From contig CACWUS010000002.1 of the NCBI GenBank assembly GCA_902764145.1, positions 69,493 through 133,492 on the forward strand: 64,000 nucleotides of DNA. The letters run 5' to 3'. Position 1 is the stretch's first letter, and every line of letters starts with the position of its first letter. The stretch comes from an uncultured Erysipelotrichaceae bacterium (GTDB lineage Bacteria > Bacillota_I > Bacilli_A > RF39 > UBA660). The notes beneath the pieces are model-generated. The model was not told where the DNA came from. It saw nothing but the letters and a program-made list of their open reading frames with translations, and made no database searches. Of this stretch, positions 8,815 to 52,011 are shown piece after piece. The position numbers were made by a program, and so were the translations under genes.

Positions 8815-11009
8815 AAAAAATATTTAAAAGATTTATAGTTTTAACAATAATAATATCAGGATTATTTCAAAATACTTTAGTTTATGCATTAACTAAAGAA
8901 GAAAATGTATATGCAAAATTAGATGAATCTGGGAATGTAGAAAGTGTATCTATTACGGAGCATCTATTTGATTATTCTGGCAAAACTATTACTGATAAAA
9001 GTGATTTGATTGATATTAAAAATTTAAATGGAGAAGAAAAATATATTCAAAAAGGAAATGAATATATATGGGAAACTAATGGTAATGATATTTACTACCA
9101 AGGAACATATAAAAAAGATTTACCAATAAGCTTAAGCGTTAAATACTATTTAAATGGAAATGAGGAAAAAATAGATAATATTTTAGGTAAAAAAGGAAAT
9201 ATTAAAATTGTTTTAACTTATAAAAATAATATATATAAAAAAGTTAATATAAATGGTAAATATGAAAAGATGTATGTACCATATGTTATTATGACAACAT
9301 CAATATTAAATAATTCAGATAATAAAAATATTAAGGTTACAAATGGTAAAATCATAAATAATGGACAAAGCTCAGTAATAACAGCTATTTCTTCACCTGG
9401 ATTATATGAGTCTTTAAAAATAGATGATTTAAAAGATATAAATAAAGTGGAAATAACATATGATACTGATAATTTTGAATTAAATTCTATTTATTCAGTT
9501 GCTACAACAGATTTATTTAGTAATGGTAATTTTGATATGCTAGGAGAAATAAATAATCTATATAAAAGTATTGATTTATTACAAAGTAATATGAACACTA
9601 TTGTAGATGCATCTAAGAAATTAAGTGTTGGTGGAGAACAAATGGATGCAGGTATAACAGAGTTAAATAATAAAATTCAAGAATTAACTAAAAAGTATAA
9701 ATATTATAGAAATCAAGATCAAAATGTATTAAAAGAAGAATTAATTAAAATAGTTGAGAAAAATATTAATACAATTACTCCTGCACTAGAAGAAGAAATT
9801 AAAAATGAAACAAGTAAAGTTATAAAGGACAACAAAAAAGAATTAGAAGCATCAGTTTTAACTTATACAAAAAAGAATACAAAATTAGTAATTGATGAAG
9901 AGGTTAATAATATAGTAAACAAAATCGATGTTGATAGTTTGATACAAAGAGTAATTAATAGTAATTTATTTAATTTACTAAAAAATGATTCAGAAATTAA
10001 TGACCTTACTAATATGCTTAAAGAAGATATTAATAAAGAATTAAAAAATATAATAGTTAATGAATTTAACAAAATAAATGAATATATTAATAGTGATATG
10101 TCTCAATCAGAAAGAGATGGTTATATTAAAAATATTGCAGAAAAATATGGGATAACTTATGAACAAGCAGAAGGTATTGTAGGAGAAGTTCAAACAGATA
10201 CTATTAATCAAATTAAAACGAATATTAGTAAATCTAATATTACAGATAAAATAATAAATGCTTTAAATGATAAGAATTATGTTTCAAATTTAGTTAATAA
10301 TTATATAAAAAAATTAAATGATAAATTAAGTGAATCATTAAATAAAGATACAACAATTGAAGAGTATTCTAAGGAATTAAAAGAAAAAATATTAATTGCA
10401 ATAAATAAAGATTTAGAAAATGAAAGTATATATTTAAATATAGATGTTAAAAATTATTTATCTGGATTAGTTGATAAAATAATTGATAATACTGCTAGTG
10501 ATTTATCAGAAAAATATACAGAAGAATATACAAATAAAGTTGTTAGAAACGTTATTGAAAAAGAGTTTAGTGAAGAAAATGTTGATACTAAATTAAGAGA
10601 GTTACTTGATATATATGATGATGATATAAATCAAAAAGTAACTATTTTGGATGATACAATTAATACATTATCAGATTCATTAAATAAATTAAATGATGGA
10701 TCTAAACAAATGTCTTCTGGTATTAATGCATTATCTAATGGATTAGATAAATACAATAAAGAAGGAATTAAAAAAATAAGTAAATTAGTTAACGGAGATG
10801 TTAAAACTCTTCAAAAGAGATTGGATGCACTTGTAAAATTAAGCAAAGATAATAAGACAGTAGATAAGATTCCAAACAAATCAAAAAGTTCATCAAAAAT
10901 AATATTTATGATTGATTCAAAAGAAATGCCAAAAGAAACAAAAACTGAAACTAAAAAGATAGAAAAGAAAGACTCTTTTTGGGATAAAGTGAAAGGATTG
11001 TTTAAATAA
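8811..11009 (+). CDS. Secreted coiled-coil protein with YhgE/Pip-like repeats
   Basis: 732 aa. Signal peptide MKKIFKRFIVLTIIISGLF. C-terminal LNKLNDGSKQMSSGINALSNGLDKY repeats resemble the YhgE/Pip LxxG motifs. Start overlaps the MMPL stop (ATGA), suggesting translational coupling. Confidence 0.5.
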   Translation: MKKIFKRFIVLTIIISGLFQNTLVYALTKEENVYAKLDESGNVESVSITEHLFDYSGKTITDKSDLIDIKNLNGEEKYIQKGNEYIWETNGNDIYYQGTYKKDLPISLSVKYYLNGNEEKIDNILGKKGNIKIVLTYKNNIYKKVNINGKYEKMYVPYVIMTTSILNNSDNKNIKVTNGKIINNGQSSVITAISSPGLYESLKIDDLKDINKVEITYDTDNFELNSIYSVATTDLFSNGNFDMLGEINNLYKSIDLLQSNMNTIVDASKKLSVGGEQMDAGITELNNKIQELTKKYKYYRNQDQNVLKEELIKIVEKNINTITPALEEEIKNETSKVIKDNKKELEASVLTYTKKNTKLVIDEEVNNIVNKIDVDSLIQRVINSNLFNLLKNDSEINDLTNMLKEDINKELKNIIVNEFNKINEYINSDMSQSERDGYIKNIAEKYGITYEQAEGIVGEVQTDTINQIKTNISKSNITDKIINALNDKNYVSNLVNNYIKKLNDKLSESLNKDTTIEEYSKELKEKILIAINKDLENESIYLNIDVKNYLSGLVDKIIDNTASDLSEKYTEEYTNKVVRNVIEKEFSEENVDTKLRELLDIYDDDINQKVTILDDTINTLSDSLNKLNDGSKQMSSGINALSNGLDKYNKEGIKKISKLVNGDVKTLQKRLDALVKLSKDNKTVDKIPNKSKSSSKIIFMIDSKEMPKETKTETKKIEKKDSFWDKVKGLFK

Positions 11010-11056
11010 TTATTATTAATTTAATAAAGACAATTAAAAGATGATATAATATATAC

Positions 11057-11704
11057 ATGAATAAATTTTTGGATAATATCAGAAAAAAAGAAAGTAATTT
11101 AAAAATAAGTAATAAAATAATTTATACATTATTATTCTTTTTACTTGGAATCTTTTTAGGAACATTTTCAAAGTGGTTAGATAATTTATCAATAGATAAT
11201 TCTATATGGTGGATGAATATTATTGAAAAGTTTGATTTAATTAATTTCTTTTCTCAAATGGCTGTTTGGTTATTTATTGCTATTTGTATTTCAGTATTTA
11301 GTAAATCTCCTTTGAGAGCAAGTATTAATGTTTTTTCATTTTTTATGGGATTGTGTATAAGCTATCATTTATATACAATTATATTTAGTGGATTTAATCC
11401 TAAAAACTATATGCTTATATGGTATGGGTTAACATTAATATCCCCAATACTTGCATATATATGTTGGTATAGTAAGAGTGATAATAGATTATCAATTGTT
11501 ATTAGTAGTTTGATATTATTTGTAATGTTTTCTAGCTGTTTTAGTATAGGAATGTGGTATTTTGATTTTAAAGGAATATTATATTTAATTTCATTTGTCT
11601 TAACGTGTGTTGTTTTATATAAAAAAACATTTAATATGATTATTAGCTTAGTTATTGGAATTATTTTATCATTCTTAATAAGAATACCATTTATAGGTAT
11701 CTAA
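11057..11704 (+). CDS. Membrane protein, unknown function
   Basis: 215 aa with 6 predicted TM helices. Confidence 0.4.
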
Positions 11705-11778
11705 TTATGTACCCTAGGTTTGTTTCCTGTAAAATTATTTAAATTAATTATATAGTTTTATTGGAAAGGAGATAATTT

Positions 11779-12498
11779 ATGAATCAGGAAAAGATTGGAA
11801 AATTTATTGCAAAGTGTCGAAAAGATAAAAAAATGACACAATCAGATTTGGCAGAAAAGTTAGGTGTTACAGATAAATCAATTGGTAATTGGGAGAATGG
11901 TAGAAATATGCCTGACTTGTCTTTATTTAAGCCACTATGTGATGAACTTGGAATAAATATTAATGATTTATTAAGTGGTGAAAAAATAAATAAAGAAGAG
12001 TATCAAGAAAAATTTGAAGAGAATATTGTTAATACAATTGATTATTCAACTAAAAGGATAAATAAATATAGTAATGTAATAGGATTGTTATTTGTTATAT
12101 TTGGACTATTTATATCAATGTCAGCTATTATGATATTTCCAAGTGAGAGTAGTTGGGGATCAATTTATTCAGTTTTTGGAGTAATAATATTTATAATTGG
12201 TATTTCAAAATTAACTAATAAAATGAAGATGTGGAAAAGATTATTATTGGTATTATTAATATTTTTAGGAACGTTAGGTATATTATTTTTTACAGATTAT
12301 ATTAATGTCAAAAGAAATAATGTAGCACCAATGTTTAGAGCAACTTCAATGTATCTTGGTGGAGATGAAGAACTTCTTTATTATGATGCACCATTCTATG
12401 ATGTTATTAAATGTAATGAAAAGTTCAATATTGTAAAGAACAAAAAATATACACATGAAGAATTATTTGAATATTGTTATAAAAACAAAAGGAATTGA
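11779..12498 (+). CDS. Membrane-anchored XRE-family HTH regulator
   Basis: MTQSDLAEKLGVTDKSIGNWENGRNMPDL is an HTH_3. Two to three TM segments follow, then a C-terminal domain. Confidence 0.65.
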   Translation: MNQEKIGKFIAKCRKDKKMTQSDLAEKLGVTDKSIGNWENGRNMPDLSLFKPLCDELGININDLLSGEKINKEEYQEKFEENIVNTIDYSTKRINKYSNVIGLLFVIFGLFISMSAIMIFPSESSWGSIYSVFGVIIFIIGISKLTNKMKMWKRLLLVLLIFLGTLGILFFTDYINVKRNNVAPMFRATSMYLGGDEELLYYDAPFYDVIKCNEKFNIVKNKKYTHEELFEYCYKNKRN

Positions 12499-12583
12499 GT
12501 TATCAATTCCTTTTATATTGACAAAATAAAAAACATAGAATACAATATTATTGTATTAATTAAATAATACAAGGAGGATAATT

Positions 12584-12943
12584 ATGGAATTAACATTTGA
12601 TAATAATATTCCAATATATATTCAATTACTAGAATATATGAAAATATATCTCATATCTGGAGTATTTAAATGTGGTGAGAAACTACCGTCAGTAAGAGAG
12701 TTTGCAACTAATTTTAAAGTTAATCCTAATACTATGCAAAAAGCATTAGCGGAACTTGAAAGTATGAAATTAATATACACTGAAAGAACTAATGGGAAAT
12801 ATGTTACAAAGGATGAAAAGTTAATTGAAAAATTAAAAGATGAGTATGCTTTAACTCTTGCTAAAAGCTATTTTCAAGGCATGAGAAAAATAGGCTTAGG
12901 TAAAGCCGATTCTATAAAATATTTAGAGAGGATAGATGATTAA
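12584..12943 (+). CDS. GntR-family (YtrA-subfamily-like) transcriptional regulator
   Basis: 119 aa. GEKLPSVREFATNFKVNPNTMQKALAELES is a GntR wHTH. The short C-terminus and the downstream ABC pair fit a YtrA-type operon. Confidence 0.7.
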   Translation: MELTFDNNIPIYIQLLEYMKIYLISGVFKCGEKLPSVREFATNFKVNPNTMQKALAELESMKLIYTERTNGKYVTKDEKLIEKLKDEYALTLAKSYFQGMRKIGLGKADSIKYLERIDD

Positions 12944-13640
12944 TATGAATCTTTTAGAAATTAAAAATTTAAATAAATCTTTTGATAAAAAAACCATTCT
13001 TAAAGATATTAACATAAGTATTCCTAGTGGTAAAATAGTTGGTTTGCTTGGTAAAAATGGGGCTGGGAAAACAACATTAATTAAATTAATAAATGATTTA
13101 TTAACACCTACAAGTGGAGAAATATTAATTAAGGGTAAAAAAATAGGTGTTGAAACAAAAAAAGTAATATCTTATTTACCTGAAAGAACATACTTAAATA
13201 AACAAATGAAAGTTTCAGAAATAGTTGACTATTTTAAAGACTTTTATGAAGATTTTGATGAAAATAAAGCAAAAAAATTGTTAAATGATTTAGATTTAGA
13301 TATAAATGAGCATTTAACTAAAATGAGTAAGGGAATGCAAGAAAAAGTAGGGCTAGTACTTGTAATGTCAAGGTGTGCAGATTTGTATATTTTAGATGAA
13401 CCACTTGGTGGAGTAGACCCTGCAACTAGAGATTATATATTAGATACAATTCTTTCTAATTTTAATGAAAATGCTAGTGTAATTATCTCAACACATTTAA
13501 TATCTGATATAGAACGTATTTTAGATGAGGTAATATTTATTGATAAAGGAAAAGTTATATTACAAAGCGAAGCAGATAAACTTAGAAACAAAGAAAAATC
13601 TTCAATTGATGAAATCTTTAGGAGGATGTTTAAATGTTAA
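12936..13640 (+). CDS. ABC transporter ATP-binding protein
   Basis: Walker A GKNGAGKTT, signature MSKGMQEKV, Walker B LYILDEPLGGVDP. Confidence 0.85.
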   Translation: MINMNLLEIKNLNKSFDKKTILKDINISIPSGKIVGLLGKNGAGKTTLIKLINDLLTPTSGEILIKGKKIGVETKKVISYLPERTYLNKQMKVSEIVDYFKDFYEDFDENKAKKLLNDLDLDINEHLTKMSKGMQEKVGLVLVMSRCADLYILDEPLGGVDPATRDYILDTILSNFNENASVIISTHLISDIERILDEVIFIDKGKVILQSEADKLRNKEKSSIDEIFRRMFKC

Positions 13641-14428
13641 ATAAATTGTTAAAATATGATTTAAAATATATGATTAAGAATATGTCTATATTATATATAT
13701 TATCTATATTTTTTGCTATAACAACTAGATTATTATTTGATGTAGAACAATCTGTAATAATTAAAATAATTGGTCAAATAAGTGTTGGGTGTATGTTTGC
13801 TATGATTGTAAACACATTAATAAACACTATGATGAGAAGTTGGATTAGATTTAGAGATTCTTTGTACAAAGATGAATCATATTTAACGCATACTTTACCT
13901 GTAACTAAAAATGACTTATATAATTCAAAATTTTTATTAACATTAATATTTTTCTTTGTGGGCTTTATTATTATTTTAATTAGTTTATTTATAGCATATT
14001 ATAGTAAAGAAAACTGGTTGGCTATTACAAATTTTGTAAAAAATATTACTATTGGTTTAAACATGAAGACTATATTTTTTGTAACTATGTTTATAATTGT
14101 TGTGTTTTTAGAAGTCTTTAATGCTATTCAATGTGGTTTTTATGGTATTATTTTAGGATATAGAAAAAATAATAATAAACTTGGTTATTCTATATTATTT
14201 GGATTTGTTTTATACTTAATATCACAATTTACTGTTTTATTGTTAGTGTTTGTGTATGGTTTATTTAATCCTTCAATTATGGAATTATTTAAAACTGCAC
14301 CAACAAGTATTGATGCTAATGCATTTAAAGTGTTATTAGTTATAACATCATTATTGTATGTGATTATTATATTTATAATGAGTATGTTATGCAAAAAAGC
14401 ACTTAATAAAGGAGTAAATGTTGAATAA
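13634..14428 (+). CDS. ABC transporter permease (ABC-2-like membrane protein)
   Basis: 264 aa with 6 TM helices. Start overlaps the ATPase gene stop. Confidence 0.6.
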   Translation: MLNKLLKYDLKYMIKNMSILYILSIFFAITTRLLFDVEQSVIIKIIGQISVGCMFAMIVNTLINTMMRSWIRFRDSLYKDESYLTHTLPVTKNDLYNSKFLLTLIFFFVGFIIILISLFIAYYSKENWLAITNFVKNITIGLNMKTIFFVTMFIIVVFLEVFNAIQCGFYGIILGYRKNNNKLGYSILFGFVLYLISQFTVLLLVFVYGLFNPSIMELFKTAPTSIDANAFKVLLVITSLLYVIIIFIMSMLCKKALNKGVNVE

Positions 14429-14555
14429 TATTATAAAAAAAATACATTTAAATAGGAATCTTTGATTCCTGTTTTTAATTAGAAAACAGATCATGTAAAT
14501 AATAGTTTTACTTAGTTTAATTAACTGATACTTATGATATAATCATTAATAGTAT

Positions 14556-16217
14556 ATGGATGGTGTAAATATGAAAAAAACATTAAAGATATTAACAAGT
14601 ATATTAATAGTACTTTGGATTTTAATTGGAGCATATTTTCTTTATGATAAATATAGAAATAAAGAGTTATCTGGAGAAAAAATATTTGATGGAATGTATC
14701 TATATAAATTAGATGTAGGAGATCAAACCCATGGAGTTAGAGTATATGATAAAAATATATATTATTGGATAGAAAATAATAATGGTTTTGATTTTTATAA
14801 AATCAATATCTATAATAATAAAAGTACTAAAATAGGTGATTTACATGGAAAAGATTTTTATTGTTATTTTGAAGAAGACTACATTGAATGTTCGAATGAT
14901 GATAAAATGATTCTTTATGATTTTAATTTTAAAAAATTATATGAAGGTGACATTAAAACAGTAATACCTTATAAAAAGAAATTAATGAAGTTTGAAAATA
15001 ATACCATTTATTATGATGATAAAAAATTTAAAATAGTAAAAGAGGATTTAACAGAATATAATTATTATCGTCATGAATCTTTTGATAATAATATCTATTT
15101 ATTCTTTTCTGGTTATAGAGATTTAGGCGGTTGTTTATTAAATGTAATGGATAATAAATGTGAAGATTATTCATATACTAATGTAAAAAAGTATAATAAT
15201 GGTTTATATTTTATAGATAAAGAAAATATTAAAATTCTTGATGTAAATACAAAAAAAATAAAAGAATATAAAAATCCATTTGATGATGCATTATTAGCAT
15301 TAAGTCAATTATATAATAATAAATTATATAATTTTGTAGATGATTATTTAAAAATATATAATTTAGATAATAACAAAGTTAGTTTTTTAGATTATAGATT
15401 AAATGAATATATTGATGATATATATCTAAATGATGGCTTATTATATTTAATTGAGTCAGATAGAGTATATATAGTAAATTTAAACGAAATAATTCTTGAA
15501 GAAATGACTTACAAGGAGTTAGAGACAAAGTTAAATAATAGACTAATTGATAGAATTAATAGTATTAAAAATGATTATAATGTCGAGATTAAGATAAAAG
15601 AAGAAGCAGACTTGAAATTTATGATAGGTGAAAGATCATATGATCTTATAAATGATTCATTAGATTATACAGAAGAAGTTTTTAAAATGTTTGGAAGTGA
15701 TTTTTTTAAAGAGTTTATTCATGATGAATATAAGGGATTAAGAATTTATTTAACAAGCGAAATACAGTCAAATGACTTTAGTAAAAGTGGTGAAGCATTT
15801 AGATATTATGACAATTATGCTATTATTGCTAATTCATCTGAATATAAGAGAACACTATGTCATGAATTATTGCATTCATTAGAAGATGCTGCTAGTGTAA
15901 AAGATAAACTTATGTTCACAAAATGGAATAAATATAATCCAAAAGATTTTAACTATAAAATTATTTTTCAAGATTATGAGGAACCTTATAAATACACTAT
16001 TAACTATGGAAAAGGTGATGTTTATTTTATAGATAATTATTCACAAACTAATGAGCATGAAGATAGAGCTAGAATATTTGAAAACATTTGTATGAATACT
16101 ACTTCTGACATTAAAGATAATAAATATTTATTAAAGAAGGCAGAATATGAAAAAAGTGAAATATTAAAATATTATCCTATTTTAAAAGATACAGTCATAT
16201 TTGATAGTTTAAAATAA
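14556..16217 (+). CDS. Membrane-anchored protein with C-terminal HExxH zincin-like motif
   Basis: 553 aa. N-terminal TM (ILTSILIVLWILIGAYFLY). HELLH in the context KRTLCHELLHSLEDAAS. No other family recognised. Confidence 0.4.
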   Translation: MDGVNMKKTLKILTSILIVLWILIGAYFLYDKYRNKELSGEKIFDGMYLYKLDVGDQTHGVRVYDKNIYYWIENNNGFDFYKINIYNNKSTKIGDLHGKDFYCYFEEDYIECSNDDKMILYDFNFKKLYEGDIKTVIPYKKKLMKFENNTIYYDDKKFKIVKEDLTEYNYYRHESFDNNIYLFFSGYRDLGGCLLNVMDNKCEDYSYTNVKKYNNGLYFIDKENIKILDVNTKKIKEYKNPFDDALLALSQLYNNKLYNFVDDYLKIYNLDNNKVSFLDYRLNEYIDDIYLNDGLLYLIESDRVYIVNLNEIILEEMTYKELETKLNNRLIDRINSIKNDYNVEIKIKEEADLKFMIGERSYDLINDSLDYTEEVFKMFGSDFFKEFIHDEYKGLRIYLTSEIQSNDFSKSGEAFRYYDNYAIIANSSEYKRTLCHELLHSLEDAASVKDKLMFTKWNKYNPKDFNYKIIFQDYEEPYKYTINYGKGDVYFIDNYSQTNEHEDRARIFENICMNTTSDIKDNKYLLKKAEYEKSEILKYYPILKDTVIFDSLK

Positions 16218-16287
16218 AAAATTCACATAATTTTGACATTATACCATAAATATGTTATAATATGTGCGTTTTAAAAAGGGGGATAAT

Positions 16288-17073
16288 ATGAAAAATATTC
16301 ATAATACAAATTTAGGAAATAAGATAATTATTTCAAAGAAATGTTTTCATAGAGAAGATTTAAAACCAGAATTTAATAAATATGAAACTAAAGAGGAAAA
16401 AAGATTAATTAAAAGCGAGGCTAAATATATTTATAGTAAGCTTCTTAATAGTGAAAATAATAGTTACTATAGTATAATTGATTCTGCAATTATTAGAATT
16501 AATTGTTATAGTGTTGCATATAATAGTCAAGTATTTACATCAAGTGGTAAATTAATTAATGAAACAGATACACTAATGGAATATGAATATGGATATAATC
16601 CATATTATTATAAAAAACTAGTTTCTGAATTAAATAAATTAGCAAGAAAAGACAATTTATTTTTAGATATATCTTTAAAAGAAAAACGTGATATGGGTAC
16701 ATATATTATTGTTATTTCTTCATTAACGAAAGAACAATTTGAAGGAATATATGAAATTACATTAGATCAATATTATGAATCTATGACTAAAAAATCTAAA
16801 AAAGGATATACTAAAGAAGAATCTAGATTTAGAAGTGAAATTGAAAAATTAAGAGAATCATATATCGAATTCATGATTGCTGATATAAATAAAGGATTTG
16901 ATAAGTCTGATATTGAAATGGATGGTTATATAGCATATTTACAAATATCTTGTAAATATAGCAGTATAGATAATAAAGAAGAGATTCTTAGAGAATATGG
17001 TTTTGAGTTAAATGAACAAAATCAATCATTAGTTTTAAAGTCAAATAGAGAGTTAACGTTAGAATTAAAATAA
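16288..17073 (+). CDS. Hypothetical protein
   Basis: ATG preceded by the GGGGGATAA RBS. The track's 16264 start is an upstream GTG extension. Confidence 0.45.
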   Translation: MKNIHNTNLGNKIIISKKCFHREDLKPEFNKYETKEEKRLIKSEAKYIYSKLLNSENNSYYSIIDSAIIRINCYSVAYNSQVFTSSGKLINETDTLMEYEYGYNPYYYKKLVSELNKLARKDNLFLDISLKEKRDMGTYIIVISSLTKEQFEGIYEITLDQYYESMTKKSKKGYTKEESRFRSEIEKLRESYIEFMIADINKGFDKSDIEMDGYIAYLQISCKYSSIDNKEEILREYGFELNEQNQSLVLKSNRELTLELK

Positions 17074-17110
17074 TAACTAGTTAAATTAAAAAGAGGGGGC
17101 AAATAATAAA

Positions 17111-17482
17111 ATGTTTGTAAGGTTAACATCTGGTGAAATATTATTAGTAGATAGTGAAGAAGAATTAATTAATTATTCAGAATTTAGATATAGCAATAAT
17201 ATTTTAGATTTATTAGAAGAAGAAGACTTAGTTAGAATTGAATATTTCTCACCTAGACATAATAAAAGAATTACACGATTGTTTATAGTTGATGAAATAT
17301 CTAATGATAGACAATTTATTACAATTAATAATGGGCATATGCACTTTTTAATCAGTGAAAATGATTTTTTAGGAAATGATAAAAAATTAGAACCTACAAT
17401 AAAATCATTCATTCCAAGAGAAAAGTTATTAGAAAGTGAATGTAATTTAACAGAAGAGAAAGAAAAAACATTGAAGTTATAA
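17111..17482 (+). CDS. Hypothetical protein
   Basis: 123 aa. RBS AGAGGGGG upstream. Confidence 0.45.
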   Translation: MFVRLTSGEILLVDSEEELINYSEFRYSNNILDLLEEEDLVRIEYFSPRHNKRITRLFIVDEISNDRQFITINNGHMHFLISENDFLGNDKKLEPTIKSFIPREKLLESECNLTEEKEKTLKL

Positions 17483-17612
17483 AAAGATGGTTATGATAAT
17501 GTAACTTATATTGAGTACTTTATCAAACCTTTTTTATTGGTTAAATTTAATTCAATTAAAAAACTATATAATTATTTATAAAAATGATATATAATATTAT
17601 CAGGAGGTAAAA

Positions 17613-18281
17613 ATGAAGAAATATTTAATTGTACTATTTTTATTAGTTATTTTACTTGGAGTAACAGGATGCAAATCTAATAAATATGCATTAGAGTTTA
17701 AAGAAGAATATGAAAGTATAAATGGTACTACTAATAATAGTGGTAAAGTGCATAGAACAATTATTATTCCAAAAGATAATCCTTTTCATAAAGTTGAACA
17801 AAAAGAAATTGTTAAGATGATTGAAGAAGGAAAAACATTCTATTTATATGTTGGAGATCCTTTATGTCCATGGTGCAGAAGTGTACTTGAAAAGTCAATT
17901 GAAGTTGCTAAGAAAAAAGGCGTTAAAGAAATTTATTATATTGATATATGGGATGATAATGGTAATGAAATATTAAGAGATAAATATGAATTAAAAGACG
18001 GTTCTTTAGAAAAAACTGTAGAAGGAACAGAAGAATATAAAAAATTATTGAAATATTTTGACTCTGTTTTAACTAAATACACATTAACAGATAGTGATGG
18101 AAATAAAGTTGATACAGGTGAAAAAAGAATATATGCTCCTAACTTTTTCTATGTTGAAAAAGGAAAAGTAATTAGACTTGTAGAAGGAATTTCTGACAAG
18201 CAAAAAGATTCAAGAGAAGAATTAACAAAAGAAATGTTAGATGATGAACAAAAAATATTTGAAGATTTTTTTGATAATTAA
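17613..18281 (+). CDS. Thioredoxin-fold lipoprotein (CxxC)
   Basis: Lipobox LLGVTGC after the signal peptide. CPWC motif in GDPLCPWCRSVLEK. RBS AGGAGG. Confidence 0.65.
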   Translation: MKKYLIVLFLLVILLGVTGCKSNKYALEFKEEYESINGTTNNSGKVHRTIIIPKDNPFHKVEQKEIVKMIEEGKTFYLYVGDPLCPWCRSVLEKSIEVAKKKGVKEIYYIDIWDDNGNEILRDKYELKDGSLEKTVEGTEEYKKLLKYFDSVLTKYTLTDSDGNKVDTGEKRIYAPNFFYVEKGKVIRLVEGISDKQKDSREELTKEMLDDEQKIFEDFFDN

Positions 18282-18477: not shown

Positions 18478-19428
18478 ATGTGGAAATACATTGGAAAAAA
18501 AGAATGTAATGAATTTTTACTATCTCTTTTTTTAATTGATGAAAAAGATAGTAAAAAATATATAAACAAATTATATTCAATTTCTAATAATATAGATAAT
18601 AATTATAGAATTTATAAAATAAAAAAAAGAAATGGTAAATTAAGAACTATATATGAACCTAATAGTACTTTAAAATATATTCAAAAACAAATACTTAAGA
18701 ATGTTTTAGAAGAAAAACATATATCTTCTTTTGCTAAAGCATATCATAAAGGAGTATCTTTAAAGGATAATGCTTTAGTTCATGTTAATAAAAAAATAAT
18801 ATTAAAATTAGATATTAAAAATTTCTTTGATAACATTAGTTTTTATCAAGTATACAATTCTTGTTTTCCAATTGAATATTATCCAAAGTCTGTTGGAATG
18901 ATTTTAACGTATTTATGCACATATGATGGACATTTAACTCAAGGCAGTCCAACTTCATCTTATATATCAAATTTAGTTATGAGAGATTTTGATGAAGAAA
19001 TTGGAAATTATTGTGTAAATAATAATATTTCTTATAGTAGATATTCTGATGATATGACTTTTTCTGGTGACTTTGATGTTAGTGAATTAATTATAAAAGT
19101 TAGAAAAATGCTATTAAAATTAGGATTTGAACTTAACAAAGATAAAATAAGTATTATAAATAAATCTAGATCTCAGAATGTAACTGGTCTTGTTGTTAAT
19201 GAAAAAGTGCAAGTTTGTAAAAAATATAGAAATAAAATTAGACAAGAAATATATTATATAAAGAAGTTTGGTATTGAATCACATCTAAAAAAAATTAACT
19301 CTTCTTTAACAAAAGAAGATTATATTAAAAAGTTGTTGGGTAGGATTTTGTATGTTCTACAGATTGATGAAAACAATAAAGAATTTTTAGAATACAAAAA
19401 ATATATTAAATTTTTAAATGGGAATTAA
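18478..19428 (+). CDS. Retron-type reverse transcriptase
   Basis: 316 aa. RT motifs 1-7: RIYKIKKRNGKLRTIYEP, AYHKGVSLKDNALVH, LDIKNFFDNIS, LTQGSPTSSYISN, YSRYSDDMTFS (YxDD). Also the retron-specific QNVTGLVVNEKV (VTG) motif. Weak terminator GGAATTAATATTCC plus T6 after the stop. Confidence 0.85.
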   Translation: MWKYIGKKECNEFLLSLFLIDEKDSKKYINKLYSISNNIDNNYRIYKIKKRNGKLRTIYEPNSTLKYIQKQILKNVLEEKHISSFAKAYHKGVSLKDNALVHVNKKIILKLDIKNFFDNISFYQVYNSCFPIEYYPKSVGMILTYLCTYDGHLTQGSPTSSYISNLVMRDFDEEIGNYCVNNNISYSRYSDDMTFSGDFDVSELIIKVRKMLLKLGFELNKDKISIINKSRSQNVTGLVVNEKVQVCKKYRNKIRQEIYYIKKFGIESHLKKINSSLTKEDYIKKLLGRILYVLQIDENNKEFLEYKKYIKFLNGN

Positions 19429-19481: not shown

Positions 19482-19979
19482 ATGAAAAAAGTAATTGTTA
19501 TTGGCTGTCCCGGCTCTGGAAAAAGTTATTTTTCTAAAAAATTAAAAGTACTTGTTAATATCCCTTTATATCATTTGGATATGATATATCATAAAAAAGA
19601 TGGAAGCCAAATATCTAAAGAAGAATTTGATAGTATATTAGATAATATTATGAGTAAAGATGAATGGATACTAGATGGTAATTATCAGAGAACTTTGGAA
19701 AAAAGACTTGAAAAAAGTGATACAGTATTTTTGCTTGATTATAGTACGGATGTATGTATTAAAGGCGCTAATGAAAGAATTGGAACAAAAAGAGATGATT
19801 TACCTTGGGTAGAAAATGAACTTGATAAAGAATTTGAACAAAGAATAATTAATTTTAATAATGAAAAGTTACCATTAATATATAAATTGCTAGATAAGTA
19901 TAATGATAAAAATATTATTATTTTTAAAACAAGAGAACAATCAAGTGATTATTTAGAAAAACTGAAAGAAGGAATTTAA
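19482..19979 (+). CDS. P-loop NTPase, adenylate-kinase-like (topology-modulation/FlaR-like family)
   Basis: Walker A GCPGSGKS at the N-terminus, 165 aa, DGNYQRTLEKRL. Own extended -10 (TGATATAAT) upstream. Confidence 0.65.
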   Translation: MKKVIVIGCPGSGKSYFSKKLKVLVNIPLYHLDMIYHKKDGSQISKEEFDSILDNIMSKDEWILDGNYQRTLEKRLEKSDTVFLLDYSTDVCIKGANERIGTKRDDLPWVENELDKEFEQRIINFNNEKLPLIYKLLDKYNDKNIIIFKTREQSSDYLEKLKEGI

Positions 19980-26310: not shown

Positions 26311-26358
26311 AATTTGATATAATAATTAAAGAAAATGCATGCTATTTTGGAGGCAAAA

Positions 26359-28305
26359 ATGGAAGATAAATTAAATAGAATGAAAGAACTTGTGGAAACA
26401 CTTAATTATGCATCAAAAATGTATTATCAAGAAAGTTCTCCAATAATGACAGATTATGAATATGATAAGTTATATGATGAACTTGTAAAACTTGAAAAAG
26501 AAACAAACACAACTTTTGCTAATAGTCCCACTGTTAATGTTGAAACAGAAGTATCAAAATCACTTGAAAAAGTAGAGCATAGTACTCCTATGCTTTCACT
26601 TGGAAAAACAAAGATAGTTAGTGACCTTGTAAGTTTTATAGGAGATAAGGAAGGACTATTATCATGGAAATTAGATGGTCTTACAATAGTTCTTACATAT
26701 AAAGATGGTAAACTTTTAAGAGGTGTTACTCGTGGTAATGGAATAATTGGCGAAGTAGTAACAGAGAATGTTAAAAGATTTAAAAATGTTCCACTTACAA
26801 TTCCATTCAAAGGTGAACTTGTTGTAAGAGGAGAAGCAATAATAAAGTATTCAGATTTTAATAAAATGAATGATGATGCTGATGAAGATGATGTTCAATA
26901 TAAAAATCCTAGAAATTTATGTTCTGGTTCTGTAAGACAATTAGATCCAAATGTAACAGCAAGTAGAAATGTAAATTGTATTATTTTTGCATTAATTAGT
27001 TCTAGTGAAAACATACCAAATATGAAAAATGAACAATTTGATTGGTTAGAATCTCTAGGCTTTGAGTGTGTTGAGAGAATTCTTGTAAACAAAAATAATA
27101 TTGAAGAAACAGTAATGTATTATAAAGAAAAAATCAAAAATTATGATATTCCATCAGATGGACTTGTTTTAACATTTAATGATATGGCATATGGCCTTAG
27201 TTTGGGAAGTACAGCCAAAGCACCAAGACATTCAATAGCATTTAAATGGAAAGATGAGACAGTTGAAAGTAAATTATTAAGTATAGATTGGAGTACATCA
27301 AGAACAGGGCTTATTAATCCTGTGGCAGTATTTGAGCCAATAGAAATTGAAGGAACAATAGTATCAAGAGCTTCAGTACATAATCTATCTATTATGCAAA
27401 GACTTAAACTTGGAATAGGAGACACTATTGAAGTATTTAAAGCAAATATGATTATTCCTCAGATAGCTAAAGATATTGAAGAAACAAATAATATAAGTAT
27501 TCCATTATATTGTCCTGTTTGTAATAATGAAACAACTATAGTTGAAAATAATGGTGTTAAATATTTATATTGTTTAAATGAGTTTTGTCATGCTAAGTTT
27601 ATAAAAAAACTAGATCTATTTACTAGTAGAAATGCTATGAATATAGATGGAATTAGTGAACAAATCTTATCAAAATTATTTAAAGAAGGAATGTTAGATG
27701 ATTATGCTGATATTTATCATTTAGATAGATATAAAGATAAAATTATTAATTTTGAAGGATTTGGAACTAAATCATATGATAATATGATAGCTAGTGTAGA
27801 AAAATCTAGAAATGTTAAAATAGCAAATTTTATTTATGCATTAGGTATACCTGAAATAGGACTATCAAGAGCAAAATTAATATGTAAACATTGCAACAAT
27901 GATATTAATAAAATTAGAAATATTACATTTGAAGAATTAAGTGTTATTGATGGTGTAGGAGATGTAATAGCGAAAACATGGTGTGATACTTTTAATAATC
28001 CTTTGTTTAATGAATCACTTGACAAATTATTATTAGAAGTTAAATTTAATGATGTTAAGAGTGATAAAACACCATTTAATGATTTAGTTTTTGTAATTAC
28101 AGGTTCACTTGAAAAATTTACCAATAGAGATGAAATGATAGAATACATTGAAAACTATGGTGGAAAAGTAATTAGTTCTGTTTCATCAAAGGTTAATTAT
28201 TTAATTAATAATGATGTTACAAGTAATTCAACAAAAAACAAGAAAGCAAAAGAATTAGGTATTAAAATAATAAGTGAAAATGATTTAATAGATATGAGTA
28301 AATAG
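26359..28305 (+). CDS. ligA: NAD-dependent DNA ligase
   Basis: Adenylation motif KLDG (SWKLDGLTIV), CPVCN...C zinc finger, HhH region, C-terminal BRCT (VFVITGSL...). Start at the ATG after the GGAGG RBS. Confidence 0.9.
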   Translation: MEDKLNRMKELVETLNYASKMYYQESSPIMTDYEYDKLYDELVKLEKETNTTFANSPTVNVETEVSKSLEKVEHSTPMLSLGKTKIVSDLVSFIGDKEGLLSWKLDGLTIVLTYKDGKLLRGVTRGNGIIGEVVTENVKRFKNVPLTIPFKGELVVRGEAIIKYSDFNKMNDDADEDDVQYKNPRNLCSGSVRQLDPNVTASRNVNCIIFALISSSENIPNMKNEQFDWLESLGFECVERILVNKNNIEETVMYYKEKIKNYDIPSDGLVLTFNDMAYGLSLGSTAKAPRHSIAFKWKDETVESKLLSIDWSTSRTGLINPVAVFEPIEIEGTIVSRASVHNLSIMQRLKLGIGDTIEVFKANMIIPQIAKDIEETNNISIPLYCPVCNNETTIVENNGVKYLYCLNEFCHAKFIKKLDLFTSRNAMNIDGISEQILSKLFKEGMLDDYADIYHLDRYKDKIINFEGFGTKSYDNMIASVEKSRNVKIANFIYALGIPEIGLSRAKLICKHCNNDINKIRNITFEELSVIDGVGDVIAKTWCDTFNNPLFNESLDKLLLEVKFNDVKSDKTPFNDLVFVITGSLEKFTNRDEMIEYIENYGGKVISSVSSKVNYLINNDVTSNSTKNKKAKELGIKIISENDLIDMSK

Positions 28306-28337
28306 AAAAAAGAATTTTTATAATGGGTGATAGGTGT

Positions 28338-31229
28338 ATGAAAAAAAGAATGGGTTTTACATTAGTAGAGTTATTAGCAGTAATAGCAATTTTGGCAATA
28401 TTAGTAATTATAGCGCTTCCAAATATAATAGAAATGTTTAATAATGCTAAGAAAAGATTTTTCTATAATGAAATTAGAATAGTTTATAATACTGCTGAAG
28501 AAACATATATAAAAGATGCTTTTAGTAATTCTGGTATAAAAGTATATGCCAAGGGTGAAGATGGAACTAAATGTGCTAAAGAATTAGATATGAGTGATAG
28601 AGATGGTTTCTATTATTATATTTCTGTTGATAGCAGTGGTAAAGTTAATAAAATATATATAAAGGATAATAATTATCAGTATGTTTTAGAAAAAGAAGAT
28701 ATAAAAAAGAATGATATTTCATTTGATGATATTAAACCTTTATCAGAAGTAGAAAATATAATTGATATTACATGTGATGGTATTTTAGCAGATACTCCAT
28801 CAAGCGATAATGGAGTAACTATGTTTGTATCTGGTAAAACTTTAAATAAAACAATGAAAAAATTATCAGGTCAACAGAATTATAATTTAGATACATTTAA
28901 TAATAGTATAACTGCATTTAAAAGAAGTACTAATAGTAATGTACCTAATAATGCAGAAGTTGTATCTACTGAAAATTCTAAAAAAACTATATACATGTGG
29001 TATCAAAGTGGAACAATATATTATTATAGTGAAGATGATAAATTATATTTAAATGATAATAGTTCACATATGTTTTATAAGTTAAGAAGCCTATCTGATA
29101 TTGAGGGTATGAATTCTTTAGACACTTCAAGAGTAGTTAACATGCTAGCAATGTTTAGCGTAACTACTAATTTAAAATCACTAGAATGGAAAGATAGTTG
29201 GGATACTTCTAACGTAACTAATATGAGTCAAATGTTTACTAGTAGTGGTATCACTAATATGGATTTGAAAAAACTAAATACAGAAAAAGTTGCAAATATG
29301 TATTATATGTTTGCTGGAACTGAATTTTCTAGAATAGATTTAAGCAATTTTAATACAAAAAATCTTGTAGATATGGGTGGAATATTTAGTCAAAATTCAA
29401 ATCTTGTTGAAATTGATTTAAGTAGTTTTGATACATCAAAAGTAACAGATATGTCTGAACTATTTCATGGTGCAAGTAATATAACTAATGTAATTTTTGG
29501 TGATAATTTTAATACATCAAAAGTTACAGATATGGGATTTATGTTTGCAGGTGCTGAAAAATTAGAATCAATAGATTTAAGTAATTTTGATACATCAAAT
29601 GTAACTGATATGAGTTATATGTTCCATGGTTGTAAGAGTTTAAAGCAATTAGATGTAAGTAATTTTAATACGTCAAAAGTAACTAATATGTTAGATATGT
29701 TTAGTAGATGTGAAAAATTGACGCAACTTGATGTAAGTAATTTTAACACATCAAATGTTACAAACATGGCTGATATGTTTGAAGGATGTAAAAATTTATC
29801 ATCATTAAACTTAAGTAATTTTAATACATCAAAAGTAACATATATGCAATCTATGTTCTCTGGAAATACAAGTTTATTAGATATAAATTTAAGTAATTTT
29901 GATACATCAAATGTTACTAGTATGACATATATGTTTAATAATTGTGAAAATCTAAGGCAACTAAATGTAAGTACTTTTGATACAAAAAAAGTTACAGATA
30001 TGGAAAGTATGTTTGCTGGATGTAAAAACTTAACACAATTAAATTTAAGTAACTTTAACACATCAAAAGTAACAAATATGAAAAATATGTTTTATGAAGA
30101 TACTAATATAATATCTGTCAATTTAAGCAGTTTTAATACAACAAATGTAATAAATATGAGTAGTATGTTTTCTTTCGATGAAAGTTTAACCTCATTAGAT
30201 TTAAGTAGTTTTGATACATCAAATGTTACTAGTATGTCATATATGTTTTCTAAAAATAAAAGTTTAACTTCACTAGACTTAAATAATTTTAATACTCAAA
30301 ACGTTACAAATATGCAAGGAATGTTTAATGAATGTGAGAAGTTAACAACATTAAATATAAGTAATTTTGATACATCAAAAGTAACAAATATGAGAGAAAT
30401 GTTTAGAATGTGTCATAATTTATCATCATTAGATGTAAGTAACTTTAACACATCAAAAGTAACAAATATGAATAAAATGTTTAATGAATGTAAAAGTTTA
30501 TCATCACTAGACTTAAGTAGTTTTAATACCCAAAACGTTACAAACATGAATGGGATGTTTAGCGAATGTAAAAGTTTAACAACATTAAATGTTAGTAATT
30601 TTAATACTAGAAAAGTGACTGACATGGAAGAAATGTTTAAAATGTGCCATAATTTGTCATCACTAGATGTCAGTAGTTTCAACACAGAAAATGTTACAAA
30701 TATGAAAAAAATGTTTAATGAATGTAAAACTTTAACAACAATTAACTTAAACAATTTTAATACAAAAAATGTTACAAATATGAATTCAATGTTCTCTGGT
30801 AGTGATAACTTAAAAACATTAGATTTGAGTAGTTTTGATACAAGAAATGTTACTGATATGGGCGCTATGTTTAGAACTTGTGGTAAATTAGAAAATGTAA
30901 ATTTAAGTAATTTTACAACAGATAAAGTTAAAAATATGGAATCAATGTTTGCGGGATGCTTCAAATTAAAAACTCTTGATTTGAGTAGCTTTGATACAAA
31001 AAATGTTACTGATATGTCTTATATGTTTCTTTATAATTCACAATTAACTACAATATTTGCTAATAATTCAAAATTTAATACAACTAATGTTACTAAATCA
31101 GATAATATGTTTAATGGATGTAGTATTTTAAAAGGTGGAAATAATACTTCTTATGATTCTAGTCATATAGATAAAATATATGCTCGTATTGATAAATCTG
31201 GTTCTCCAGGATATTTTACAGCTAAGTAA
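28338..31229 (+). CDS. Type IV prepilin-like protein fused to about 25 BspA-type leucine-rich repeats
   Basis: MKKRMG/FTLVELLAVIAILAIL is a class III (prepilin peptidase) signal with Phe+1 and Glu+5. The C-terminal 650 aa are 22-23 aa repeats LxxLDLSNF(N/D)TSKVTNMxxMFxxCxxL. Confidence 0.75.
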   Translation: MKKRMGFTLVELLAVIAILAILVIIALPNIIEMFNNAKKRFFYNEIRIVYNTAEETYIKDAFSNSGIKVYAKGEDGTKCAKELDMSDRDGFYYYISVDSSGKVNKIYIKDNNYQYVLEKEDIKKNDISFDDIKPLSEVENIIDITCDGILADTPSSDNGVTMFVSGKTLNKTMKKLSGQQNYNLDTFNNSITAFKRSTNSNVPNNAEVVSTENSKKTIYMWYQSGTIYYYSEDDKLYLNDNSSHMFYKLRSLSDIEGMNSLDTSRVVNMLAMFSVTTNLKSLEWKDSWDTSNVTNMSQMFTSSGITNMDLKKLNTEKVANMYYMFAGTEFSRIDLSNFNTKNLVDMGGIFSQNSNLVEIDLSSFDTSKVTDMSELFHGASNITNVIFGDNFNTSKVTDMGFMFAGAEKLESIDLSNFDTSNVTDMSYMFHGCKSLKQLDVSNFNTSKVTNMLDMFSRCEKLTQLDVSNFNTSNVTNMADMFEGCKNLSSLNLSNFNTSKVTYMQSMFSGNTSLLDINLSNFDTSNVTSMTYMFNNCENLRQLNVSTFDTKKVTDMESMFAGCKNLTQLNLSNFNTSKVTNMKNMFYEDTNIISVNLSSFNTTNVINMSSMFSFDESLTSLDLSSFDTSNVTSMSYMFSKNKSLTSLDLNNFNTQNVTNMQGMFNECEKLTTLNISNFDTSKVTNMREMFRMCHNLSSLDVSNFNTSKVTNMNKMFNECKSLSSLDLSSFNTQNVTNMNGMFSECKSLTTLNVSNFNTRKVTDMEEMFKMCHNLSSLDVSSFNTENVTNMKKMFNECKTLTTINLNNFNTKNVTNMNSMFSGSDNLKTLDLSSFDTRNVTDMGAMFRTCGKLENVNLSNFTTDKVKNMESMFAGCFKLKTLDLSSFDTKNVTDMSYMFLYNSQLTTIFANNSKFNTTNVTKSDNMFNGCSILKGGNNTSYDSSHIDKIYARIDKSGSPGYFTAK
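29150..31060 (+). repeat. Tandem 66-69-nt coding repeats (LRR units)
   Basis: Recurrent AGTAATTTTAATACATCAAAAGTAACAAATATG... units. Their mirror image creates the spurious minus-strand ORFs 29615..30061 and 30413..30964. Confidence 0.8.
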
Positions 31230-31473: not shown

Positions 31474-32814
31474 ATGAAAACAGAACCTAAAACATTATCT
31501 GGATTTATGGAATTATATCCAAATGAGCAAATTGCTTTTGATAATATTAAAAATACAATAATAGATACATATAAAAAATATGGATTTTATCCTCTTGATA
31601 CACCAATAATAGAGTATTCTGAAGTTCTACTTGCTAAAGCAGGAGGAGAGACAGAAAAACAAATATATAGATTTGAAAAAGGTGATAATGATTTATCTTT
31701 AAGATTCGATTTAACTGTGCCTTTAGCTAAATATGTAGCAAGAAGATATAATGAACTTGTATTTCCATTTAAGAGATATCAAGTAGGAAAAGTATTTCGT
31801 GGTGAAAGACCACAAAAAGGTAGATTTAGAGAGTTTTATCAATGTGATATAGATGTTATAGGTGATGAAGAATTATCACTTAAATATGATTCAGAATTAG
31901 TTAATGTTATTTATGATATATTTAGTAAATTAAATATTGGTGATTTTAAAATTAGAATTAATAATAGAAAGATATTGAATGGTTTTTTTGGTAGATTGGG
32001 GATCAATAAAGAACTAACAGCTGAAGTATTAAGAATTATTGACAAGTCTGAAAAAATAAGTAGAGAAAGTTTGATTGATGAATTAGATAAAATTGGAATC
32101 ACTGAAATGCAAAGATTCGATATACTTAATTTGATGGATAGAAGATTAATTAATCCTGATATGGAAGAAAGTTTGAATTATTTGAAAAGAGAATATCCAA
32201 AAACTAATAAAGATAATAGTTTATTAAATGAGGGAATAGAAGAATTAGAAACTATTTTAAATGATTTGAAGTCAAGAGGAATACCTCGTAAATATTATGC
32301 AGTTGATTTAACAATAGCAAGGGGACTTGATTATTATACTGGTACAGTGTATGAAACATCACTTGTTGATTATCCTTCTATTGGAAGTGTATGTTCTGGT
32401 GGAAGATATGAAAATTTAGCAGAATTTTATACAGATAAAAAATTACCTGGAGTAGGACTTTCAATTGGGCTTACTAGACTTTTTTATCAATTAGTAGAAG
32501 CAAATATTATTAAAATTGATAATGTATCTTCTTCAGATGTTATGATACTTCCTATGTGTGATAATTACGAATATATATATAAAGTTAATAATATACTAAA
32601 AGAGAATAATATAAAGGTTAATATTTGTTATTTAGATAAAGGTTTTAAACAAAAAATGAAATATGCTAATAGAATGAATAATAAATATATAATAATAATT
32701 GGAGAAGATGAAGTTAATAATAATACAGTAGTACTTAAAAATATGATTAGTGGAAATCAAATGACTATTAGTTTTAATGAATTAGCTTCATTAAAAGAAA
32801 AAATACTAGAATAA
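31474..32814 (+). CDS. hisS: Histidyl-tRNA synthetase, archaeal/eukaryote-like type
   Basis: LRFDLTVPLAKYVA and GRFREFYQCDIDVIG match the YDLTVPFARY / REFYQCDFDIAG motifs of eukaryotic-type HisRS. C-terminal anticodon-binding domain present. Confidence 0.8.
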   Translation: MKTEPKTLSGFMELYPNEQIAFDNIKNTIIDTYKKYGFYPLDTPIIEYSEVLLAKAGGETEKQIYRFEKGDNDLSLRFDLTVPLAKYVARRYNELVFPFKRYQVGKVFRGERPQKGRFREFYQCDIDVIGDEELSLKYDSELVNVIYDIFSKLNIGDFKIRINNRKILNGFFGRLGINKELTAEVLRIIDKSEKISRESLIDELDKIGITEMQRFDILNLMDRRLINPDMEESLNYLKREYPKTNKDNSLLNEGIEELETILNDLKSRGIPRKYYAVDLTIARGLDYYTGTVYETSLVDYPSIGSVCSGGRYENLAEFYTDKKLPGVGLSIGLTRLFYQLVEANIIKIDNVSSSDVMILPMCDNYEYIYKVNNILKENNIKVNICYLDKGFKQKMKYANRMNNKYIIIIGEDEVNNNTVVLKNMISGNQMTISFNELASLKEKILE

Positions 32815-33217: not shown

Positions 33218-33424
33218 AGTAAATCGATGATGTGGAGAAGTAACATATAAATTCTTTATAGAGAGTTAGTGTCTGGTGAAAACTAATAAGATATATATGT
33301 GAATAACACCACTGAGTGGAATGTCGAAATTAAGTAGACACTCACGGTTAATACCGTTATATAAATTAAGTAAATAAAGGGATGGTACCGTCTTATGACT
33401 CCTTGTGCCATTCCTTTTTATTTT
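33218..33424 (+). promoter_or_regulatory. T-box riboswitch leader (controls ASCH-asnS-aspS-gatCAB)
   Basis: Stem I AGAGAG...GGTGAAA elements. Distal AGTGGAATG. T-box sequence AAATAAAGGGATGGTACCGTC. Terminator GGATGG...CCATTCC plus TTTTTATTTT. Confidence 0.7.
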
Positions 33425-51969: not shown

Positions 51970-52011
51970 AGTATTTCTATGGCTAATTATATTAATAGGA
52001 GGATAAGAATG
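51953..52011 (+). repeat. Repeat R2 (copy of the R1 5' UTR module)
   Basis: AAAAAAAGAAGTGTTTTAGTATTTCTATGGCTAATTATATTAATAGGAGGATAAGAATG. Two mismatches versus R1. Begins inside the dinD-like C-terminal coding remnant. Confidence 0.8.

Follow-up and report, generated by a model that had tools for sequence, protein, structure and literature searches.

The 64 kb stretch of DNA analyzed here (the window; contig CACWUS010000002.1 of an uncultured Erysipelotrichaceae bacterium) is very AT-rich (∼24% GC) and carries on its plus strand, at 28338–31229, an intact, uninterrupted open reading frame (ORF) whose predicted product joins a prepilin-like N-terminus to a long solenoid of leucine-rich repeats (LRRs). 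Translation from the ATG at 28338 gives 963 amino acids (aa) plus a stop codon, with the N-terminus MKKRMGFTLVELLAVIAILAILVIIALPN; an earlier reading made from the sequence alone (hereafter, the sequence-only reading) had given 964 aa, a figure that includes the stop codon. The gene is flanked upstream by ligA (NAD-dependent DNA ligase; 26335..28305, plus strand), whose stop codon lies 32 nt before ATG 28338, and downstream by hisS (31474..32814, plus strand). An upstream in-frame ATG, the start picked by gene callers, would add MGDRC (28323..28337, plus strand) and lengthen the product to 968 aa. Since homologs nearly always begin with MKKKG/FTLVE, and since GGTGAT is found 6 nt 5′ of ATG 28338, this appears to be the better start and ATG 28323 is probably not the real one; the resulting leader, MKKRMG, is longer by one residue than that of the homologs.

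The identical 968-aa product occurs on eight metagenome contigs from rumen-type ENA assemblies (four samples among the places listed), and the order ligA-X-hisS is found at three of the four loci listed. Because the same protein recurs on eight contigs, we take the gene, on the strength of these sequences, to be a maintained one. In one sample (L004 605–2568) ligA, just 5′ of the intact gene, is broken into products of 54 aa and 600 aa by a frameshift or an assembly error. Promoter-like sites in the region of the gene are no commoner than in shuffled sequence, and the search for a terminator of its own returned one weak terminator-like site only, within the 3′ end of the ORF.

The N-terminus displays each element of a class III signal. 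A short basic leader, MKKRMG (28338..28355, plus strand), ends in Gly(−1), directly after which lies the predicted prepilin-peptidase cleavage site, followed by Phe(+1), Glu(+5), and ∼21 hydrophobic residues. The hydrophobic segment α1N (FTLVELLAVIAILAILVIIALP; 28356..28421, plus strand) contains mature Phe1, Glu5, and Pro22 and is near-invariant across the family of proteins that share the module described below. Both Pfam N_methyl (PF07963, 24.2 bits against a cut-off of 21.2) and TIGR02532 (18.5 bits against 16.3) match the product, in agreement with the canonical prepilin N-terminus (G/FTLVE with Glu+5) recognized in the sequence-only reading, and a six-frame scan of the window found this motif to be its sole prepilin motif. 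The NCBIfam models of the ComG pseudopilins score far lower than their cut-offs (ComGC 25.7 against 75, ComGD 21.7 against 70, ComGE 20.4 against 49), and the window has no comG operon.

The signal continues into a pilin module that comprises aa 1–150 (28338..28787, plus strand). For this region AlphaFold2 (AF2), run on a 121-sequence alignment, predicts a 53-residue α1 helix (aa 9–61) followed by a four-stranded antiparallel sheet, with predicted local distance difference test (pLDDT) values of 87–98; when modeled alone, the module reached a pLDDT of 89.4 and a predicted template-modeling score (pTM) of 0.77. A profile of the module matches α1 of solved pilins, namely Geobacter PilA (2e-8), Myxococcus xanthus PilA (4.5e-8), Streptococcus sanguinis PilE1 (1.3e-7), and Thermus PilA4. 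Position 6 of the profile aligns with mature residue 1 of these pilins, and therefore the predicted cleavage site is in register. In alignments of the family, Gly−1, Phe1, Thr2, Leu3, Val4, Glu5, and Pro22 are invariant or nearly so and α1N is almost identical throughout (GFTLVELLAVIAILAILVIIALPN), while the conserved positions of the globular part are D60, Y70, L83, G101, D110, and Q114. As judged from sequence and model, the N-terminus is a class III (prepilin) signal with a pilin-like module, and thus more than a hydrophobic anchor. The sequence-only reading had allowed that homologs might reveal a generic transmembrane anchor; what follows the signal is a conserved pilin-like module.

C-terminal to the module is a linker together with the N-terminal flank of the repeat array (aa 151–254; 28788..29099, plus strand), which is modeled with low confidence (pLDDT 40–50; aa 153–250 in the AF2 model) and is partly conserved in other pilin-DUF285 fusions. 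It leads into 26 tandem PARCEL (DUF285/TIGR02167) repeats built of 26-aa, 78-nt units (aa 255–932, ∼680 aa; 29100..31133, plus strand). The protein closes with a cap ending in SPGYFTAK (31134..31226, plus strand), common to other DUF285 proteins (P0089 and P0097 end in GPSNPGYFTRK), in which neither an LPXTG motif nor a C-terminal transmembrane segment was seen. The product scores 604.5 bits with DUF285 (PF03382; cut-off 25, E=4.5e-185) and 687.5 bits with TIGR02167, the “PARCEL repeat” model (cut-off 30, E=3e-213, 22 stretches), and it shares with PARCEL, DUF285, and TIGR02167 proteins the repeat core L.LS.F.TS.VT.M..MF..C..L. Tandem Repeats Finder reports a period of 78 nt, with multiples at 156 and 234 nt, and by motif count there are 25 regular units and a degenerate one at 26-aa spacing. 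The count of about 25 repeats in the sequence-only reading therefore holds, while the period of 22–23 aa (66–69 nt) given with it has to be corrected to 26 aa (78 nt), and the proposed 650-aa LRR solenoid is of the right class and measures ∼680 aa.

AF2 models the array as a solenoid with one β-strand per 26 aa (pLDDT 82–93). Against solved LRR proteins in the PDB, the array matches FBXL2 (2.6e-6) and 4gt6, a “cell surface protein” (5e-6), and weak Pfam matches of the product to LRR_4, LRR_8, and LRR_EndoS were also recorded; LRR_5 (PF13306) is absent among its Pfam matches at E≤0.1. The C-terminal part is thus, by sequence and model, an LRR-class solenoid, and the structure prediction suggested as a check in the sequence-only reading yielded both a pilin-like module and a solenoid of LRR type. 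The description of the repeats as BspA/LRR_5-type needs correction, DUF285/PARCEL taking the place of LRR_5; the label that NCBI gives to DUF285 proteins is nevertheless “BspA family leucine-rich repeat surface protein,” and 4gt6 is matched as stated above. The 78-nt units share a mean identity of 68% (maximum 85%), and no exact internal repeat exceeds 37 nt. Units this diverged make the expectation of copy-number variation in highly repetitive DNA an overstatement. As for repeat-number variants between strains, the full-length search gave only giant PARCEL proteins without pilin modules and exact look-ups are limited to identical copies; P0001, considered as such a variant, was rejected as a copy cut by a contig end.

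Two ORFs run antisense to the repeats on the minus strand, one of 183 aa (30413..30964) with a periodic amphipathic pattern (FVTFxVLKLL every 26 aa) and one of 148 aa (29615–30061) inside the array. Antisense-open “palindromic” coding is the property behind the PARCEL name (PMC2996958), and the array displays it; both ORFs are probably by-products of such coding rather than genes. PARCEL arrays elsewhere are found on lipoboxes, in mycoplasmas, or with dockerins, vWA domains, or transmembrane segments (PMC2996958), and N_methyl is present in none of the 120 best full-length PARCEL relatives (1008–1674 aa). Hence, from these architectures, the PARCEL solenoid appears as a promiscuous binding module for which a pilin is one of several alternative anchors.

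We searched for the pilin-module family with a 257-aa query consisting of the pilin module and the linker. At a threshold of E≤1e-3 this query retrieved 2944 proteins, whose common part is approximately the first 150 aa and whose C-terminal domains are varied. Searched exhaustively with HMMER, 1.84 billion cluster representatives (50% identity) gave 418 matches at E≤1e-30 and 2684 at E≤1e-10. The best 150 representatives have a median length of 355 aa, with six of at most 200 aa, 27 of at least 500 aa, and a maximum of 939 aa; this longest member (P0319) is another pilin-DUF285 fusion. Pfam finds N_methyl in all of the 128 representatives annotated, DUF285 in 13, DUF6273 in seven, LRR_5 in four, PT-HINT, Hint, or intein domains in two, and Laminin_G_3 (LamG_3) in one, whereas most of the remainder have no recognized C-terminal domain. 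With the highest of these counts, DUF285 is the commonest recognizable cargo of the pilin module. In P0095 and one other representative the pilin module carries PT-HINT, Hint, or intein-splicing domains characteristic of polymorphic toxins; as far as the sequences go, this suggests toxin cargo on a pilin.

In GTDB species genomes we confirmed 374 relatives, and the best 80 all lie in uncultured gut or rumen metagenome-assembled genomes (MAGs). Most of these 80 are labeled Bacilli, “Tenericutes,” Mollicutes, Mycoplasmatota, or “Erysipelotrichaceae” (including CAG:582 and CAG:1000), and a few are labeled Clostridium/Clostridiales, Muribaculaceae, Bacteroides helcogenes, or unclassified “bacterium.” The species of the window itself is absent from these best 80; in the nearest genomes, gyrA and alaS DNA shows only 74–76% identity to that of the window. 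Around the family matches, the DNA contains 129 prepilin-motif ORFs (median 353 aa, maximum 770 aa), and the sampled DNA of RUG840, RUG12046, and Lapin-027_bin88 holds at least 7–8 prepilin-motif genes per genome. The gene is not an isolated curiosity but a member of a large family of paralogs. These members typically sit singly, wedged amid housekeeping genes, so that an orphan position is normal for the lineage; the placement between ligA and hisS emphasized in the sequence-only reading is accurate, but it carries little weight where such genes are scattered.

Two other arrangements were seen within the family. On a 509 kb contig of an uncultured “Tenericutes” MAG (L067, ∼5990–17500), seven tandem prepilin-motif ORFs of 367–687 aa lie within one 20 kb stretch, an extreme local expansion. 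A 161-aa member with an identical α1N (P0110; L009 10001–10486, also L064, L051, L048, L049, and L079) has a context conserved across several genera, in the order murG, ftsQ, ylbD, ylbE, pilin, AP endonuclease. From its sequence, the P0110 type is a candidate for the shaft (major) pilin of the family.

The window itself contains no T2SSE, T2SSF, or Peptidase_A24 gene, as judged from the annotation of identical genes on metagenome contigs and from Pfam matches of the remaining ORFs, and phmmer searches with E. coli HofB, HofC, GspE, GspF, and GspO found nothing in it. This agrees with the sequence-only reading, which had reported no pilus assembly genes here and had suggested looking for them elsewhere in the genome. 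In relatives such a look turned up the ATPase, a T2SSE protein encoded beside a small pilin; PilC and PilD are taken up below. In RUG840, the gene for a T2SSE ATPase (E=4e-123) is divergent from that for a 167-aa N_methyl pilin, which is followed by proS, an unknown gene, and the gene for a 723-aa pilin-Gly_rich_2 fusion. A further relative has a syntenic locus with proS, a 140-aa pilin, T2SSE and, further on, PBP2, lexA, rhomboid, and rluD, and the ATPase of this locus is encoded on the same 883,710-bp contig as a member of the pilin-module family. The core of proS, small pilin (140–167 aa), and divergent PilB/GspE-type ATPase, with PBP2-lexA-rhomboid-rluD further on, thus recurs in two related gut/rumen Bacilli (L032 5354–12172 and L103 7761–11413). 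In a Hadza-gut relative the ATPase adjoins a 121-aa pilin; of the core, this locus (L093 9515–11323) has only the divergent pair of small pilin and ATPase. In another MAG, a T2SSE gene lies ∼4.6 kb from the gene of a 203-aa pilin with housekeeping genes between them. The PilB-like ATPase of the relatives is, like the pilins, scattered amid housekeeping genes.

The relatives' ATPase scores 474 bits with the NCBIfam model of GspE, 452 with that of PilB, and 261 with that of ComGA, all below the equivalog cut-offs, and it is without the PilB N-terminal domain. It is highly conserved, with more than 8000 homologs, of which the top 120 are 69–99% identical. The small pilin linked to it has only α1 in common with the module studied here. 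Within 10 kb of the pilin/ATPase loci L032, L093, and L103 we found neither a platform protein nor a prepilin peptidase; two unknown proteins encoded near the ATPase (323 aa and 311 aa), considered as divergent platform proteins, were rejected, being mutually unrelated and without a family match. P0235, a T2SSE homolog considered as the ATPase of the window's own organism, was rejected because it belongs to a human-gut relative, and a ranking of candidate T2SSE homologs by amino-acid composition was uninformative.

With moderate confidence, drawn from sequence and structural model, we interpret the gene product as a modular type IV pilin composed of a class III signal, a ∼150-aa pilin module, a ∼100-aa linker, and a 26-repeat LRR solenoid, and displayed on a filament; its function would probably be that of a pilus-displayed adhesin. 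The proposal of the sequence-only reading that a type IV filament presents an adhesin is supported by our analysis insofar as it agrees with the published modular-pilin concept, which has been shown experimentally for S. sanguinis PilB (PMC8179133). In the mechanism that we propose, the precursor would insert into the membrane via α1N, and a prepilin peptidase would cut after Gly6, releasing the leader of six residues. Powered by a PilB/GspE-type ATPase as in the relatives, a type IV filament machine would then build the pilin module into a filament; given the bulk of the C-terminal module, its position would most likely be the tip or a short stub. The LRR solenoid would be held off the wall, where it could bind a ligand, e.g., surface material from plant or host, or another microbe. 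The pilin module would serve as an interchangeable carrier, with an almost invariant α1N and many different C-terminal modules in the paralogs of uncultured gut and rumen Bacilli. Of this scheme, tip display, processing, and adhesion are what we infer.

A wider proposal, which we put forward tentatively as a possibility short of even chances, is that one pilin module acts as the universal surface-protein carrier in AT-rich gut/rumen Bacilli (“Tenericutes”/RF39/RFN20-type MAGs). Dozens of scattered fusions (adhesin, lectin, LRR, pretoxin-HINT) would then share one minimal, dispersed type IV filament machine, a counterpart of the bindosome or a “Swiss-army” pilus, with the 963-aa fusion as the largest cargo here.

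Several observations weigh against filament display. Foldseek searches of the PDB with both models returned no significant pilin match, so that at the level of fold the assignment to the pilins is one of topology only. The window and ∼1.57 Mb of related loci yielded neither a prepilin peptidase (A24) nor a platform protein (T2SSF); the search for PilC and PilD in relatives used regular expressions and phmmer (E. coli HofC, GspF, and GspO) and sampled a few per cent of each genome, so that this negative is not evidence of absence. The ATPase of the window's own organism was not identified, either in the 64 kb or among the homolog candidates. That dozens of bulky pilins in a single genome should all serve as tip subunits is also hard to explain. 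Paralogs that number at least 7–8 per genome and are mostly bulky fit poorly with a single tip position, and they would be accommodated more readily if the protein were anchored by its pilin part but not borne on a filament. The class III signal and α1N would then serve for processing and anchoring, and the protein would remain membrane-bound or part of a very short stub resembling a pseudopilus, as the general surface-display route of a wall-bearing bacterium with a reduced genome. In keeping with such a route, the pilin-module genes are scattered and unlinked to machinery, the sole machinery seen is an N-terminally short ATPase with one small pilin, and the Sulfolobus bindosome offers a precedent (PMC3047682). 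However, the globular head is conserved and Glu5 and Pro22 are invariant, traits under selection for polymerization that a simple anchor would not need, and family members of ordinary size (P0110, 161 aa) could form a filament shaft. From the balance of this analysis, we consider anchoring without a filament rather unlikely, though deserving of serious attention.

Two further explanations appear very improbable to us. The pilin-like N-terminus could target the protein to a type IV filament machine that expels it in soluble or loosely attached form, as in a type II secretion system (T2SS) or for TcpF, and the slightly better NCBIfam score of the relatives' ATPase with GspE than with PilB would fit such a route. 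Yet the hydrophobic α1N would remain on the protein after cleavage, a monoderm would presumably need no outer-membrane secretin pathway, and T2SS and type IV pilus (T4P) secretion substrates are not known to have a class III signal of their own. We give as little credence to the N-terminus being a generic signal anchor or Sec signal that resembles a prepilin motif, which would make the product an ordinary membrane-tethered PARCEL protein comparable to the mycoplasma lipoproteins. PARCEL arrays do occur on many anchors, including lipoboxes, transmembrane segments, and dockerins (PMC2996958), and the closest full-length PARCEL relatives are without N_methyl. Against this, hundreds of homologs keep Gly−1, Phe+1, Glu+5, and Pro22 with little or no change, the hidden Markov model (HMM) scores exceed their cut-offs, the helix leads into a conserved 150-aa pilin-like head, and pilin-module proteins co-occur with PilB-type ATPases in relatives. 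We retain the modular, filament-displayed pilin as the preferred interpretation.

The remainder of the window encodes gyrB, gyrA, MMPL and ABC transporters, and a reverse transcriptase on one side of ligA, the pilin-LRR gene, and hisS; beyond hisS come two class II aminoacyl-tRNA synthetase genes (the second with a GAD domain, aspS-like), gatCAB, and alaS, and the window also contains rlmN, PP2C, a PASTA kinase, rsgA, rpe, and C39 and ABC exporters. The 316-aa reverse transcriptase (18478–19428, plus strand) matches the PADLOC retron RT_Ec107-like model at E=1e-125, as well as RT_III-A models, and by its sequence probably marks a retron-type defense system ∼9 kb upstream of the pilin-LRR gene. 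The ORFs beside it (17111–18281 and 19482–19979) had no PADLOC match, and the downstream one, of 165 aa, has weak similarity to KTI12/AAA_18. A diversity-generating retroelement acting on surface proteins was considered and rejected, as there is no template repeat/variable repeat (TR/VR) pair and the reverse transcriptase is of the retron type. Rfam matches at gathering level are limited in the window to a T-box leader (33218–33406, plus strand; 109.9 bits), upstream of the first class II aminoacyl-tRNA synthetase gene downstream of hisS, and a tRNA gene after gyrA (3128–3200, plus strand). A bacteriocin-type Peptidase_C39/ABC exporter (51979–54081) coincides with the window's stretch of lowest GC content (52001–54000, 18%); a Bro-N protein comes before it and a 43-aa ORF after it. 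On ERZ919304 scaffold_1161 (L006 1–5200 compared with L005 1–5200, upstream of window position ∼3400, at the left edge of the window region), gyrB and gyrA give way to small ORFs and to the genes of a Big_14 protein and a protein exceeding 989 aa, through a strain-level rearrangement or a chimeric contig.

Modular type IV pilins are known from S. sanguinis, in which a vWA module is found on PilB and a lectin module on PilC (Raynaud et al. 2021, PMC8179133; Shahin et al. 2023, PMC9934059). By combining InterPro IPR012902 with foreign domains, Raynaud et al. listed >1,200 proteins in 264 architectures (PMC8179133), and the ORF described here likewise unites N_methyl and DUF285/TIGR02167 in one product. 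Their Dataset S1 holds nine proteins with the architecture IPR012902-IPR005046 (DUF285), four with its three-copy version, and 18 with IPR012902-IPR026906 (BspA LRR_5) (PMC8179133). The pilin-DUF285 combination is thus already catalogued, though never studied. What appears to be new is its extent within one lineage, in which a single conserved carrier, mostly modular members, many scattered paralogs, and a dispersed minimal machine come together; we found no literature on pili in RF39/RFN20-type uncultured Bacilli. Modular pilins are thought to explain many functions of simple type IV filaments, and the two or three that have been studied all come from cultured pathogens. The 680-aa LRR solenoid on a 150-aa pilin takes this design to an extreme, in a lineage of uncultured gut and rumen Bacilli where modular pilins are the norm and where the genes for the pilins and for the assembly ATPase lie scattered amid housekeeping genes. 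Should a single filament machine display the family, the attachment of these abundant, unculturable symbionts to feed particles, host, or other microbes would depend in large part on these proteins, which would also constitute a natural surface-display scaffold.

Compared with known systems, the protein resembles the ComG pseudopilins (ComGC to ComGG) in having a class III signal of monoderm type and a weak NCBIfam similarity that is confined to α1; it differs from them in scores far below the equivalog cut-offs, in having no comG operon, and in relatives whose ATPase scores higher with GspE and PilB than with ComGA. The large minor pilins CofB of enterotoxigenic Escherichia coli (ETEC), TcpB of Vibrio cholerae, GspK of the T2SS, and ComZ of Thermus combine a pilin module with extra domains and are proposed or shown to sit at the filament tip (PMC8179133), but there is no sequence kinship to them beyond α1, they are encoded in machinery operons, and their extra domains are not LRRs. 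The likeness to the PARCEL/DUF285/TIGR02167 surface proteins (Roske et al. 2010, PMC2996958) lies in the 26-residue repeat, the long arrays, the antisense open frames, and the surface location. Unlike those proteins, the product has a prepilin/pilin module as its anchor in place of a lipobox, transmembrane segment, or dockerin, and the PARCEL paper nowhere mentions pilins (PMC2996958). With the Sulfolobus bindosome (PMC3047682) it shares the principle of binding proteins with a prepilin-type signal, many substrates depending on one small assembly system; however, the bindosome is archaeal, its substrates are without a conserved globular pilin head, and the Bas system has ATPase and platform genes of its own, of which we identified none here. 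The modular pilins of S. sanguinis differ from it in the size of the module, since a ∼680-aa PARCEL solenoid is far larger than vWA or lectin, and in the linker, ∼100 aa here compared with a short loop; in addition, the present gene lies outside any pil operon, belongs to a family of many paralogs, and is known from sequence alone. Both belong to monoderm Firmicutes, and both follow the same plan, in which a linker connects a class III signal and a small pilin module with a bulky module of no pilus-specific type and of predicted ligand-binding function.

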